A DNA stretch of 64,000 nucleotides from Octopus vulgaris (lineage: Eukaryota), in the NCBI GenBank assembly GCA_951406725.2, contig OX597822.1, positions 59,706,001-59,770,000 on the forward strand, read 5' to 3'. This document shows positions 5,103 through 40,170 of the stretch, one piece after another. A model generated the notes under the pieces. That model was not told the origin of the DNA. It did no database searches and was given only the letters and a program-made list of their open reading frames with translations. The position numbers and the translations under genes are program-made. Within the stretch, counting starts at the first letter, position 1. Every line of letters starts with the position of its first letter.

Positions 5103-5456
5103 TTATAATTAGGGTTCAGCAACATTTGCCTCACCACATACCGAAATTTAGAAATAGCAATTAAAATACTATTCTACTACCATAAGATATCTCCCAGACA
5201 GCAATACTCTACAACACAAGCAGGTAAAGAGAAAAAAGAATAACGAATTCACCCGGCTTTGATTAACTATATATGCGTTTCGGGGTTAAAGAGATGTAAA
5301 AAGATGTAAAATCATATTTCTACTCACTTATTCCCTTCCTCAGTATAGTATTTCAAGTTTTAAAATTTGAGAGCACTGATAATTAACATACGTACTCGAC
5401 CAAGTGAGTAAAAATATGACTTTACATCTTTTTACATCTCTTTAACCCCGAAACGC
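5103..5456 (-). mobile_element. Non-autonomous Penelope-like pseudo-LTR element with internal inverted repeat and hammerhead
   Basis: Inverted repeat 5276-5329/5403-5456. Left part resembles 38033-38230 (CAGCAAC..TTGCCTCACCACA..CCGAA.TTTAGAAATAGCA). Starts at a TA run. Confidence 0.6.
5266..5349 (-). ncRNA. Type I hammerhead ribozyme, slightly degenerate
   Basis: Minus strand: ACUAUA-CUGAGGA-aGGG...CCCC-GAAA-CGC-AUA-UAUAGU. Stem I is 6 bp. The 10.1-11.1 pair and 16.2 look mutated (inverted partial copy reads GAAACGCG). Confidence 0.6.
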
Positions 5457-5460
5457 GGAA

Positions 5461-6066
5461 GAAGGTAATTAAAATTCATTAAAATAAGAAATCTATCAGA
5501 CTTTTGAGAAAGAGGGAAAAACCTCCTCGCCGAAACAAAACTCAGGAAGAAAACCAAAGCTTTCAGAGAGGTACCGTCGGACTCTTACACGAATTATTAG
5601 AAAGGATCACAAAACTACAGCTCCCAAAATTACTGCAGAGCTTGATGACTACCCCGAGAACCCAGTTTCCATAAAAACTGTTCGCCGGGAGCTGCACAAA
5701 TCTGGATTTCACGGAAGGGCTGCAATCAGAAAACCACTACTTTCAAAAACAAACGTTGCAAAGCGTTTAGAGTGGAGTAAAAACCTATAGAATTGGTGCC
5801 TAGAACAGTGGAAGGATGTTATTTTCTCGGACGAGTCTTCCTTTACCTTATTTCGGACCACAGGCTGAGTATACGTGTGGAGACAGCCAAAATAAGTATT
5901 TGACCCAGACTACTTTCTTCCAACTGTTAAACATGGAGGACTATCTGTGACGATCTGGGGGGTGGAGGGCTAAATCTTGGAAATCCGTCGGCCCAATGGT
6001 TTCCTTTCATGACAGAATTAATAGTCAAGACTATTTAAGTATTTTATCTGATCAAATTAATCCTCT
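5461..6066 (+). mobile_element. Tc1-family transposase remnant
   Basis: Reads SGRKPKLSER..VSIKTVRRELHKSGFHGRAAIRKPLL..RLEW..WKDVIFSDESSF..PTVKHGG, with internal stops. Confidence 0.9.
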
Positions 6067-7184
6067 TAACGAATCAGTATTACTTTCATTTGCGGCAGGG
6101 ATAGGGCGCAAAATGAAGTGTAAATTGCTGGATTTAATATTGCGTAGTATATACACCCTTGCCTTATATGTGTATGTGTGTGTATGTTTGTGTTTCAAAT
6201 GAGTTTTATTGACGCTAACAGCTTTTTACATTTGTTTACAATTTCTATTAATTAAATATTTTTCGAAGTCCACCACCTCAGGTATATTAGACCACAAATG
6301 ATTATTTGTCCTTCATAAATAAAGCATACACGGGAAATATTCTAATGTCATTATCTCACGAGGCTTGTCATTTTATTTATCTTTCATATTTACTTCAGAC
6401 AGGTTAGGTTTATTCATTTGAAGGTATTTGGTATATCCTTACACGTAACCCCTTCCACTTGCTTGCTCCTCATTCAATACCGTATAGTTTCTTGGCAAGT
6501 AGGTGTTTTATATTTTGTCAAATGATTTTTCCGTGCTATGACTAGCCAGTTTGGAATATCCATTTTGCATTCCATATGTCATATACATGTACACGTGAGG
6601 ACCACTTTTCATTTATTTAGTCACTTTCTGGTGCCTTCCTATTATGCAACTGTTTCACAGCATTACTAAAAGGCGATATTGTATGCTTTATTATTGTTAT
6701 TCACATAGTGTTTCTTTCTGCTGTACTCATGCATGATACATTATGGTTGAATTTAGTATTTCCATTTCCAGTTTTAGACAAAAACGATCTTAGATGTACT
6801 TGAGAATGAGCTATTTTAGGGATTGTTTTCCTTTCCTTTAACCTCCGTTATAAAGCTTGTGAAATAACAGCAAACGTGGTTGATGATGACTCATTGATAT
6901 CGTTAATTTTGGTAACGGAGTTTCTCACTGAAGATCCATGCTTTAATGTTATTAATTTACCATCAAAAACTTGGTATATTAGCATGTATGTATGTATGTA
7001 TGTATGTATGTATGTATATATGTATATATGTATGTATGTATGTATGTATGTATGTATGTATGTATGTATGTATGTATGTATGTATGTATGTATGTATGTA
7101 TGTATGTATGTATGTATGTATGTATGTATGTATGTATACATGCATGTATGCATATATGTCACGACGACGAGGGTCCCACTATAT

Positions 7185-7404
7185 ACGATCATTAACGTGC
7201 AAGTGGCTGAGCACTCCACAAACACGTGTACTCTTAACGTAGTTCTCGGGGAGATTCAGCGTGACAGAAAGTGTGACTCTGAGTGGACGGGAGCAACGTG
7301 AAATAAAGTGTCTTGCTCAAGGACACAACGCATCGCCGGGAATTGAACTCACGACTTTACAATCGTGAGCCGAATGCCCGAGCCACTAAGCCACGTGCCT
7401 TCAC
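7185..7404 (-). mobile_element. tRNA-derived SINE
   Basis: A/B-box-like head (GTGGCTTAGTGG..GAGTTCAATTCC) and CTTGAGCAAGACACTT core on the minus strand. Confidence 0.7.
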
Positions 7405-7473
7405 ACATTTTAAAAATGTAGGTATGTATGTTTGTATTCACTTATATGTGTAAGTATATATGTACAAGTATTA

Positions 7474-7736
7474 TATAAGGAAGTATATTTGCCACTTAAA
7501 TGTGGCTAACCCTTAAGGGTGGATGCTACTGTAGCTTGTAGCCCCAGGAGGACACCTACTCCAGCTGGCTATTGACACACTTTCTGTGCTCTATCAGTAT
7601 TTGCAAAGGGAAACCATACTTCCCATCTTTAATCTGACATGGTGCACACGGACTCGAGTTTCTGGGTATTGACCCATCATCAGCGTGTGACAATCACCGA
7701 TTGCCGATGAAAAGTGGGTTCCCTTTGCAAATATAT
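7474..7736 (-). mobile_element. Short (~260 bp) hammerhead-containing retrozyme-like element
   Basis: Hammerhead enclosed by inverted repeat 7598-7627/7706-7733. Element boundaries approximate. Confidence 0.55.
7645..7689 (-). ncRNA. Minimal type I hammerhead ribozyme
   Basis: CACACG-CUGAUGA-UGGGU-caau-ACCCA-GAAA-C-UCGA-GUC^-CGUGUG: full core, 6-bp stem I, 5-bp stem II, palindromic ACUCGAGU stem III. Confidence 0.9.
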
Positions 7737-37900: not shown

Positions 37901-38032
37901 GCATTATACGTGTGTTCACATGTATGTATGTATGTATGTTTGTATATATGTATGTATGTATGTATGTATGTATGTATATATATATATATATATATATATA
38001 TATATATATATATATATATATATATATATATA

Positions 38033-38876
38033 CTAAGTAATTAAGGGTTTAGCAACGAATTGCCTCACCACACACCGAATTTAGAAATAGCAGTCAAAGA
38101 GTTATAGCTATTCTTTCTACTAAAAGGGAGATCTCAGTAAAAACACAGCACTTGAAAGGCAAACACAGACAGGTAAGAGAGAATGAAATGACGGCAATCT
38201 ATCATACAATTTTAAGTCACCCACGGACGTACGTTTCGAAATTAAGTTTTAGGAAAGCATAAGAATTAGATAATTATGTCTTACCCAACTTCTTTTTAGT
38301 AGAAAGAATAGCTATAACTCTTTGACTGCTATTTCTAAATTCGGTGTGTGGTGAGGCAATTCGTTGCTAAACCCTTAATTACTTAGTATTACTTAAACTT
38401 TCCTCGAATGAGGCTTTTACATGCCGAAATCTACTTGGTGTAATTAATGATTATTCCAAATTAATTAATTTCACCCTATATTGTTGCTGATAACCATATT
38501 TCATCCCAGTAAATGACCACATCATCTTGTCTTGGCTACACGCGGGTGGGAAGGGGTTGGTGACACAAACTTTCATTCACATTTTGAATTTGGTGATACT
38601 GGTAACGGCTTTAGCTCGCTCTGATACTGAGTTGAGATGATGCCTTCTAGTATCTCGAAATTTAATATACAATTATTCATAATTGTAGTGTCCTACGCTG
38701 ATGAGAAAAGAAGTTGGGTAAGACATAATTATCTAATTCTTATGCTTTCCTAAAACTTAATTTCGAAACGTACGTCCGTGGGTGACTTAAAATTGTATGA
38801 TAGATTGCCGTCATTTCATTCTCTCTTACCTGTCTGTGTTTGCCTTTCAAGTGCTGTGTTTTTACTGAGATCTCCC
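38033..38876 (+). mobile_element. Doubly folded-back Penelope-like pLTR element (A-B-A'-C-B') inside (TA)n
   Basis: A 38033-38125 inverted at about 38295-38387. B 38126-38296 inverted at about 38705-38876. Confidence 0.8.
38692..38782 (+). ncRNA. Type I hammerhead ribozyme with long stem II
   Basis: CCUACG-CUGAUGA-GAAA...UUUC-GAAA-C-GUAC-GUC^-CGUGGG. Palindromic ACGUACGU stem III. Predicted cleavage after 38776. Confidence 0.85.
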
Positions 38877-39317
38877 TATATATATATATATATATATATA
38901 TATATATATATATTACTCTTTACTCTTTTTACTCATTTACTTGTTTCAGTCATTTGACTGCGGCCATGCTGGAGCACCGCCTTTAATCGAGCAACTCGAC
39001 CCCGGTACTTATTCTTTATTGTAAGCCCAGTACTTACTCTATCGGTCTCTTTTGCCGAACCGCTAAGTAACGGAGACATAAACACACCATCATCGGTTGT
39101 CAAGCAATGCTAGGGGGACAAACACAGACACACAAATACACACACGCATATATACATATACATATATACGACGGGCTTCTTTCAGTTTCCGTCTACCAAA
39201 TCCACTCACAAGTAGAAGATACTTGCCCAAGGTGCCACGCAGTGGGACTGAACATGGAACCATATATATATATATATATATATATATATATATATATATA
39301 TATATATATATATATAT

Positions 39318-39626
39318 ATTGATAAAACGGTAAGATAACAAAAGAAAGAAAGAGACCTCAATATTATGTAAATAGAGGAAATTTATCTATACAATATGTT
39401 ACATTACTCGGTAGTCAAGATAAAACTCTGAGTTTCAGATGCCGAAGTGGAAATCCACGACGTTATTCTCAACTAAGAGCTAATACGGCCTTTTTGGATT
39501 ATCGCCTAACATCGGTTGAGGACTCTCACATACAGAAGAATTTAATAAGAAAGTTGTGGATTTCCACTTCGGCATCTGAAACTCAGAGTTTTATCTTGAC
39601 TACCGAGTAATGTAACATATTGTATA
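39318..39626. repeat. (TA)n-bounded element with ~70-bp perfect inverted repeat
   Basis: 39388-39458 versus 39556-39626. Confidence 0.8.
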
Positions 39627-39650
39627 TATATATATATATATATATATATA

Positions 39651-40170
39651 TATATCCATTACGGTTGATCTTACCTATCAGTTTCGCACCTGATGTTCAA
39701 CGGAATGTTTGGTAACAGTCTGATTATGTAACTCTGCACTCATCAGAGGTAGCCGTTATTGAATAAAATATGGCGACTGTTCTCGTCTGTTGGAGGTGCA
39801 TAGGCACATCCAGTTTGCGGTTGCTGCGAAGAAGATGAAATGAATCGAGTAGGAGATTGCATTAAGAATTATGTCCCTTGATACCAAAACATCGTCTCTG
39901 TGGGTTGTTTTGGTGCAGGTCGGCAAGAGTTTTCTGGGAAAGAGTTCATGGGATATGTGTGCGTCTTTAAGATTCGTTTCATCATCTTTTTCACAACAAT
40001 CACAAACAGGATGTGTCTATGCACTTCCAACAAAAGAGAACAGTTGCCATACTTCATTCCGTAACGGCTATCTCTGTTGAGCGCAGGGTTACATAATCGG
40101 ACTGTAACCTAACACTCTGTTGAACTCCTAGTGCGAGACCGATTGGTAAGATCAGCCGCAATGGATATAT
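39651..40170. mobile_element. Older inverted-repeat element (~195-bp diverged arms), each arm with a decayed hammerhead
   Basis: Minus arm CUGAUGA-GUGC..GUGC-GAAA-CUGAUA. Plus arm CUGUUGA-GCGC..GUGC-GAGA-CCGAUU. Confidence 0.55.

Follow-up and report, generated by a model that had tools for sequence, protein, structure and literature searches.

Hammerhead ribozyme families at (TA)n runs in Octopus vulgaris DNA: 3′ ends of Penelope-like elements and non-coding units that probably enter by a common route

Hammerhead ribozyme motifs were analysed in a 64,000-nucleotide (nt) stretch of Octopus vulgaris DNA (assembly GCA_951406725.2, contig OX597822.1, positions 59,706,001 to 59,770,000, forward strand), referred to below as the window, and in the genome at large (2.8 Gb, 227 contigs). 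The window is microsatellite-rich animal DNA, and its hammerheads belong to dispersed families of two kinds, namely 3′ ends of coding Penelope-like elements (PLEs; families B, E and H) and non-coding units (families A, C, D and F). Judged from the DNA, and with good confidence, both kinds are likely to enter (TA)n runs by means of a Hydra-type reverse transcriptase (RT)/GIY-YIG endonuclease (EN) enzyme, and their motifs are predicted to self-cleave; cleavage, RNA circles and the exact partner are what we infer.

Hammerhead elements in the window

Positions preceded by a plus sign are counted from the predicted cut. Family F is present as an arm of a non-coding unit at 5103..5456 (-) (unit ~580 nt, homologous to D), with a hammerhead at 5266-5349 (-) (55-nt domain II, predicted cut after 5272), a short inverted arm at 5402-5456 and a TA run at 5073-5102. 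Family A is present as a monomer at 7480..7810 (-) (ends approximate) of a ~330-350-nt circularly permuted non-coding unit, with a short canonical hammerhead at 7645-7689 (-) and the stem III ACUCGAGU. An earlier sequence-only reading had given most families (TA)n boundaries; these do not hold for this copy of A, where there is no (TA)5 run. The family C element consists of an inverted arm at 35808..36211 (-) (short 3′ end +131, hammerhead 35930-36036), which adjoins (TA)24, and a forward arm at 36212..37425 (+) of 2.5 tandem 491-nt non-coding units. The forward hammerheads lie at 36599-36705 and 37090-37196 (+), with 68-nt domains II and predicted cuts after 36697 and 37188; the 5′ end of this arm lies 5 nt past a cut site and its long 3′ end (+237) adjoins TA. 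Family D has an inverted arm at 38033..38296 (-), which holds only the 3′ half of a hammerhead, ends at the short 3′ end +194 and adjoins (TA)29, and a forward arm at 38294..38877 (+) of one 583-nt non-coding unit with an atypical 3′ end (+101) followed by TA; its hammerhead is at 38692-38782 (+) (60-nt domain II, ACGUACGU, predicted cut after 38776).

The coding families are truncated here. Family B has an inverted arm at 30180..30599 (-) (long 3′ end +217, hammerhead 30388-30480), which adjoins (TA)44, and a forward arm at 30600..31696 (+) made up of EN, 3′ untranslated region (UTR) and hammerhead, with the short 3′ end +63 and then TA. The broken GIY-YIG endonuclease end of a Hydra-like PLE spans 30597..30956 (+) with one stop at 30768, and the forward hammerhead spans 31551-31643 (+) (55-nt domain II, ACACGUGU, predicted cut after 31633). 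Family H, a canonical Hydra PLE, is represented by inverted TA-flanked 3′ ends at 39320..39622 with half a hammerhead only, and family E by an old inverted pair of PLE 3′ ends at 39656..40180 (right end approximate), with an intact core at 39682-39746 (-) and a broken one near 40073-40140 (+). For the dispersed-repeat searches the best 40 matches per search were scored; the larger first-look candidate counts genome-wide were 3019 (A), 1882 (B), 1177 (C), 2633 (D), 1032 (E) and 1887 (F).

Hammerhead motifs

A strict type I descriptor (stem I at least 4, stem II at least 4 and stem III at least 2 bp) was passed by five window sites, 7651(-), 35938(-), 36607(+), 37098(+) and 38698(+), and by none in block-wise dinucleotide shuffles (n=300), a control that had been proposed with the sequence-only reading. 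All seven hammerhead cores named in that reading were located, and the palindromic stem III and the inverted or tandem layout that it described were borne out. The type I core CUGANGA...GAAA...UH is present in the window families, with CCGANGA instead in one D subfamily and in family H. Three helices surround the core, with helix I open; those of A, C and D keep within the strict stem limits, two family B copies (30406-30471, -; 31560-31625, +) miss the descriptor solely by a 3-bp stem I, and stem I of family E is bulged. Two places had been called degenerate. The motif at 5266(-) is a genuine long-stem hammerhead (core 5343, GAAA 5281), in which only stem III is short, with a single bp in the copy found here; in 24 other copies of F it is mostly ACGCGU. 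In family E the description is right for 40070-40150(+), which is mutated in both core halves, and wrong for 39682-39746(-), whose core is intact.

No hammerhead family appears among the matches listed from Rfam (150 of 248), which were dominated by microRNA-model matches to microsatellites. Folding was clearly better than in shuffles only for C (z -4.3) and F (z -2.2); z was -1.4 for D and -0.6 to +0.1 for A, B and E. From their sequence the hammerhead motifs are real, the weaker ones being confirmed by copies elsewhere in the genome, with self-cleavage predicted. Because of the long domain II, the canonical loop 1-loop 2 contact is unlikely in the motifs that carry it.

Genome-wide population

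The genome was scanned with the pattern CTGAWGA-N-GAAACDNNHGTM, where N is the spacer in nt; C-type stems lie outside this pattern. Matches (control in brackets) numbered 4,589 (103) for N 12-20, 8,714 (289) for N 21-49, 28,404 (273) for N 50-75 and 5,267 (301) for N 76-105. The total of 46,974 (control 966), 72% of it with N 50-105 nt, agrees with the large and diverse population proposed earlier; it counts pattern matches and not elements, arms and tandem units being counted apart and one core being able to match two ranges. Of the first 30 long matches, 24 had a stem I of at least 3 bp, 20 a stem II base of at least 3 bp (random 14%) and 29 a stem III with palindromic pairing at 6 or more of its 8 positions; 13 had an inverted copy nearby, 21 had TA no more than 350 nt away (background 22-32%), and none had a tandem copy. 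Since a tandem copy was found within 1.5 kb of only 1 of 60 sampled genome-wide matches, most matches are probably single or inverted truncated PLE ends, and the earlier description of the population as non-coding is overstated.

Coding carriers

Families B, E and H are, by their sequence features, 3′ ends of protein-coding Hydra-type PLEs, contrary to the earlier view of the hammerhead elements as non-coding. PLE identity was based on motifs compared with PMC8557442 and on 411 homologues, nearly all without a name. Neither the EN pieces nor the RT fragment nor an 885-aa family B frame had a match in Pfam, and PDB gave no significant match.

Full-length relatives of family B measure 3.62 kb, have a ~895-aa frame with RT and GIY-YIG, and also occur in tandem. 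The motifs RWL, DKT, YRDD, CNLC (CxxC) and CPH (CxH) are present; the CxCX5C linker is absent and a long Ser/Asn-rich linker takes its place. Because of the missing linker and of a length above the <3 kb of the Hydra clade, the family was filed as Hydra-like only, following section 11 of PMC8557442. Unlike the Hydra-clade PLEs in these two respects, it is still TA-targeting (36/37 loci); copies such as L206:4137-6791 and L446 thus target (TA)n despite missing the cysteine linker that has been proposed to mediate the TA bias. Family E shows Hydra-type endonuclease similarity upstream in other genomic copies. Family H, overlooked in the sequence-only reading, is a canonical Hydra PLE of 2.58 kb with a 717-codon open frame and a CCGAAGA-core hammerhead. 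Three copies show RWK, DKT, the CxCX5C linker, CxxC, CxH, a length of <3 kb and a TA target, the Hydra-clade motifs listed in PMC8557442. A 140-aa EN query of this family returned 20,308 candidates, and because the best 150, which were scored, are all 100% identical, the family appears to be very young; it is an intact young candidate source of the enzyme.

The PLE remnants reported at 30597 and 37586 are both present. The second, a post-RT fragment at 37584..37895 (+) between TA runs, belongs to a separate abundant PLE type with a DKG motif and a CX4CxxC linker, by which we label it Neptune-like. It was considered as the mobiliser and set aside: it has another type of hammerhead and no shared sequence, and nothing links it to the hammerhead families. 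Copies of this type (L448-L455) are young and abundant, end at (TA)n and carry a minimal hammerhead with a UUGAAGA core.

Non-coding units

That non-coding tandem units exist, as had been claimed, was confirmed for families C and D. Family C is a closed tandem unit of 491 nt in arrays of up to ~18 units and family D one of 583 nt in arrays of up to ~10; their longest stop-free frames are 68-69 aa and their GC content is 36-37%. In families A and F the sequence continues circularly, and no full tandem array of their units was seen. On these features C and D are assigned to the type of non-LTR (non-long terminal repeat) retrozymes, and A and F are likely to belong there. When A, C, D and F were compared with 123 PLE proteins the best E was 0.019. 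Domain II measures 68 nt in C, 60 nt in D and 55 nt in F. Families D and F share 61% identity over ~640 nt, so that the description of the families as mostly unrelated does not apply to this pair. Two more tandem hammerhead families, L529 (535 nt) and L530 (546 nt), likewise have inverted arms and lie between TA runs; the second is a relative of D and F, yet has a 25-nt domain II. By their sequence D, F and L530 would form a lasting non-coding lineage.

Folded as circles, retrozyme-type units gave z of -5.9 and -5.0, which says nothing of expression. Four sequencing runs guessed to be RNA covered every bin with assembled contigs, from which neither RNA ends nor strand nor circles can be read; for family C (window 36452-36942) all bins were covered in run X16, which is labelled as a second species. 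The CCGANGA core is fixed in a spreading D subfamily (26/70 loci), in family H and in the PLE of the chimeric locus L079 described below (also L294, L311, L526-L528). Solo D fragments of ~90 nt (L292, L346, L359, L363, L369, L375) start at +105 to +107, and most of them are flanked by TA at either end.

Insertion structure and target sites

The exact short 3′ end followed by TA occurs genome-wide 408 times in C, 462 times in D and 319 times in B (reversed-pattern control 0). Loci were sampled by this sequence in listing order from contigs C1-C4 (C 90/408, D 70/462, B 50/319). Because TA at the short end was thereby selected, only the other, long end tests TA targeting. An inverted arm was present in at least 73/87 (C), 43/70 (D) and 38/49 (B) uncensored loci, these counts being lower bounds because divergent subfamilies broke the alignment. 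The long 3′ end of the inverted arms is fixed at +230-242 in 63/70 cases in C, at +284-306 in 40/42 in D and at +210-219 in 36/37 in B, and TA lies beyond this unselected end in 68/70, 42/42 and 36/37, as against 5% at random window positions; the (TA)n enrichment expected at the boundaries was thus found. The two fixed 3′ ends of C and D are ~105 nt apart, stand on inverted arms and each adjoin (TA)n. The tail between the ends measures ~45 nt in A, ~105 in C and D and ~154 in B. The PLE-type combination of two 3′ ends with an inverted 5′-truncated arm was found in B, C and D, the coding family B having a layout identical to that of C and D; in A there are two clusters of 3′ ends, at ~+173 and +215-227. 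Target-site duplications are obscured by TA runs on both sides.

Minor subfamily alleles were carried by both arms of a locus in 299 cases and by one arm in 20 (C), and in 246 and 10 (D); markers differ by 34-39% between loci and by 1-2% between arms. With these alleles shared and the arms so similar, both arms of a C or D insertion were copied from one template. The two arms meet at joins that show microhomology or are close to symmetric. Joins symmetric within 5 nt numbered 15/73 (C), 6/43 (D) and 10/38 (B), as against 2.3, 1.3 and 1.7 under permutation, an excess that fits fold-back or twin priming. One locus, L079, is a chimera in the order TA, D arm, microhomology join, folded-back Hydra-type endonuclease piece, PLE 3′ UTR, long-stem hammerhead, TA; its PLE arm is B-like, and the whole lies between two TA runs. 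It is the sole direct link of the non-coding units to a Hydra-type partner. PLE-type mobilisation, proposed earlier, is supported by the fixed 3′ ends, the inverted arms of one template, the TA ends and this chimera.

The same data bear on two other explanations. The units could be mere pseudo-LTR fragments of autonomous PLEs yet to be found, as the single or inverted ends that make up most genome-wide matches, the ends of this kind formed by B, E and H in the window, and a comparison that covered three PLE families would allow. We regard this as improbable: the C and D units are self-closing, since the short arms cross the cut site into the previous unit in 58/90 cases (C) and 30/70 (D); their frames are short and the protein comparison gave nothing better than the E of 0.019; PLE coding sequence is touched in only 1/228 C and D loci, some of them overlapping; and D, F and L530 appear to be a lasting non-coding lineage. 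Spread without an RNA intermediate, the repeats being satellites or foldback elements that multiply as DNA through recombination or rolling-circle copying, would suit the higher-order repeats of long arrays (period 4 in L220, alternating units in L225). It is hardly credible for the families themselves, because their 3′ ends are fixed while their 5′ ends are scattered, their arms end asymmetrically, their layout is shared with the RT-coding family B, and D forms a chimera with a PLE.

Possible use of the ribozyme

The interval +1 to +30 holds an excess of arm 5′ ends, both for C (hazard x3.2, 32/160, p 2e-7) and for D (hazard x2.35, 14/113, p 0.005), the p values being optimistic because the arms of one locus are linked and not independent. 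The interval ranks 2/491 in C and 7/583 in D. A hazard version with BLAST boundaries gave x3.9; the boundary-free versions, used here, gave x3.1-3.2. About half of the arms read through the cut site. Because 145/177 C passages do so, uncut multimers or circles dominate as templates. A comparison of arm registers, multimer versus circle, had 2 informative sites, which are mutually discordant, and the corresponding signal in arrays is confounded by DNA-level duplication.

The C core is intact in 69/73 full-length haplotype-loci, while N7 and H17 vary. In D, 3 pairs are changed on both sides among 13 hand-picked copies, a pair count that 40/500 shuffles reach; stem cells are 94.9% paired, and slid controls show 0 double-sided changes. 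Among the 10 haplotypes of C there is no double-sided change. The E core differs at 5/286 cells (1.7%), as against 866/7857 (11%) of non-CpG cells.

A number of observations weigh against use of the ribozyme or against a Hydra-type partner. Besides the linkage of arms, family B shows no 5′-end excess past the cut (7/87), the excess in D loses significance when its short arms are taken by themselves (7/70, p 0.15), D has extra hot spots at +61 to +120, and few stops are exactly at +1. In D the CCGAUGA-core subfamily (9/40) and the CUGA type (5/36) stop at +1 to +30 equally often. Beyond the missing double-sided changes in C, cores are no better conserved than other sites in A (7/290 vs 239/6317) and F (9/240 vs 293/6325), and in C and D the core is mispaired when the monomer takes its lowest-energy fold. 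For families A, C, D and F a comparison by DNA and protein similarity, which covered three PLE families and their 3′ ends, gave no autonomous element with shared sequence, and the chimera is a single case among the 228 C and D loci. Insertion by an anole PLE in vitro is independent of hammerhead cleavage (PMC11167929).

It could be, then, that the PLE route is right and the hammerheads of the non-coding units are inert relics, with uncut multimers as templates and the pile-up of 5′ ends produced by RT stalling at the three-way junction. The CCGA-core D subfamily, most stops falling at +5 to +25 and not at +1, and the frequent read-through in C all suit this. So do the anole PLE, which uses uncut RNA and showed no RNA-seq ends at its cut site (PMC11167929), and frog retrozyme dimers, 8/9 of which showed no cleavage (bioRxiv 10.64898/2026.07.22.740005). 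We consider it unlikely, as the C core is fixed while N7 and H17 vary, D has compensatory changes beside the core, stronger hairpins elsewhere in C cause less stopping, and B, with a similar junction (weak stem I), has no pile-up past the cut.

On the route that we favour, through a Hydra-type enzyme, the unit would be transcribed as a multimer, and the hammerhead, probably as a dimer or with the help of a protein, would cut part of this RNA. The enzyme would cut both strands of a TA run and RT would start inside the RNA at two set sites; two complementary DNAs (cDNAs) from one RNA, made by twin priming or by fold-back of the first cDNA, would be joined head-to-head. Uncut or circular RNA would give multi-unit arms and cut linear RNA arms ending just past the cut site, and the longest arrays would have grown later by DNA-level duplication.

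A more far-reaching version is doubtful, and is put forward as a possibility. The genome may be a fossil record of hammerhead activity in vivo, in which the members of a lineage-wide long-stem-II radiation (>30,000 copies, which standard descriptors miss) cleave themselves and form circles, and Hydra-type enzymes insert non-coding RNAs, both circular and cut linear ones, at TA runs by twin priming. If so, the ribozyme would set insertion length, and viroid-like retrozymes would parasitise PLEs.

Comparison with known systems

The hammerhead class, TA targeting, palindromic stem III and retrozymes as PLE derivatives are already published, and the hammerhead families may already be catalogued in Repbase or Dfam. 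PLE hammerheads and their palindromic helix III were described in PMC4209133, and non-LTR retrozymes, with PLEs as candidate partner, in PMC7229834; vertebrate retrozymes were treated as non-autonomous PLE derivatives in bioRxiv 10.64898/2026.07.22.740005. Hydra PLEs with TA targets and palindromic stem III, including the octopus family Hydra-1_Obim, and the inverted arm, tail and TA bias of PLEs were described in PMC8557442. A squid genome paper lists 235 Rfam hammerheads. In the literature searched, mostly without subscription papers, neither a radiation of long-stem hammerheads nor retrozymes with PLE insertion scars were found to be reported. The present families are a structural variant at large scale, with unusually direct genomic evidence for mechanism, within a known class.

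Metazoan non-LTR retrozymes resemble C and D in being dispersed, non-coding and low in GC, with a type I hammerhead in each tandem unit, and a non-autonomous origin from PLEs has been proposed for them (PMC7229834; bioRxiv 10.64898/2026.07.22.740005). The link to PLEs comes here from insertion scars, which were not found in the accessible text of those two papers; on the other hand the units here could not be linked by sequence to the pseudo-LTR of a partner, and domain II measures 55-68 nt in C, D and F. The coding families share with Hydra-clade PLEs RWK/DKT, a C-terminal GIY-YIG without CCHH, CxxC, CxH, (TA)n and palindromic stem III (PMC8557442). Hydra-clade hammerheads in PMC8557442 File S2 have, by our count, ~26 nt or less between core halves, whereas this distance is 54-55 nt in B and E; the same file has similarly long loops in two plant PLE-X rows, so that a long domain II is not unprecedented.

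In vitro, RT on a Poseidon PLE of Anolis carolinensis starts internally at two sites that lie downstream of the hammerhead, from which its tail derives, and at AT-rich target DNA each of the two strands is cut and extended (PMC11167929), as envisaged here. Its tail is 30-40 bp, as against ~45 (A), 105 (C, D) and 154 (B); unlike the non-coding units this element is coding, and it was not seen to use cleaved RNA (PMC11167929). MRC1 and other non-autonomous Chlamys elements are likewise non-autonomous PLE derivatives with head-to-tail insertions, but their 3′ sequence is common with autonomous families and most Chlamys elements are without canonical hammerheads (PMC8557442).

As to who mobilises animal retrozymes, prior papers, in the text accessible, argue from co-occurrence and pseudo-LTR similarity; the non-coding units here carry the PLE-specific scar of two start sites, and one chimera points to a Hydra-type enzyme. 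As to the role of PLE hammerheads, the 5′-end pile-up is a genomic readout either of the use of cut RNA or of RT stalling. With long-stem motifs in the tens of thousands, hammerhead counts made with descriptors are probably too low in such genomes.

Other features of the window

A TA-flanked inverted repeat at 4552-4925 has an internal 40-nt hairpin and no hammerhead, with one weak match among the loci compared; it is probably another PLE-type 3′ end. A 739-codon open frame with an RT domain (PF00078) at 27824-30040 (-) belongs to a copy resembling a long interspersed nuclear element, which ends at the TA run bordering family B, and a Tc1/mariner transposase fragment (PF01498) at 5488-5787 (+) adjoins the family F element. 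A tandem duplication of ~960 bp (94% identity) occupies 11587-13515. An abundant dispersed short repeat resembling a short interspersed nuclear element was found at 13558-13925, 16770-17180, 38921-39261, 49156-50408 and 56032-56438, often beside TA runs.

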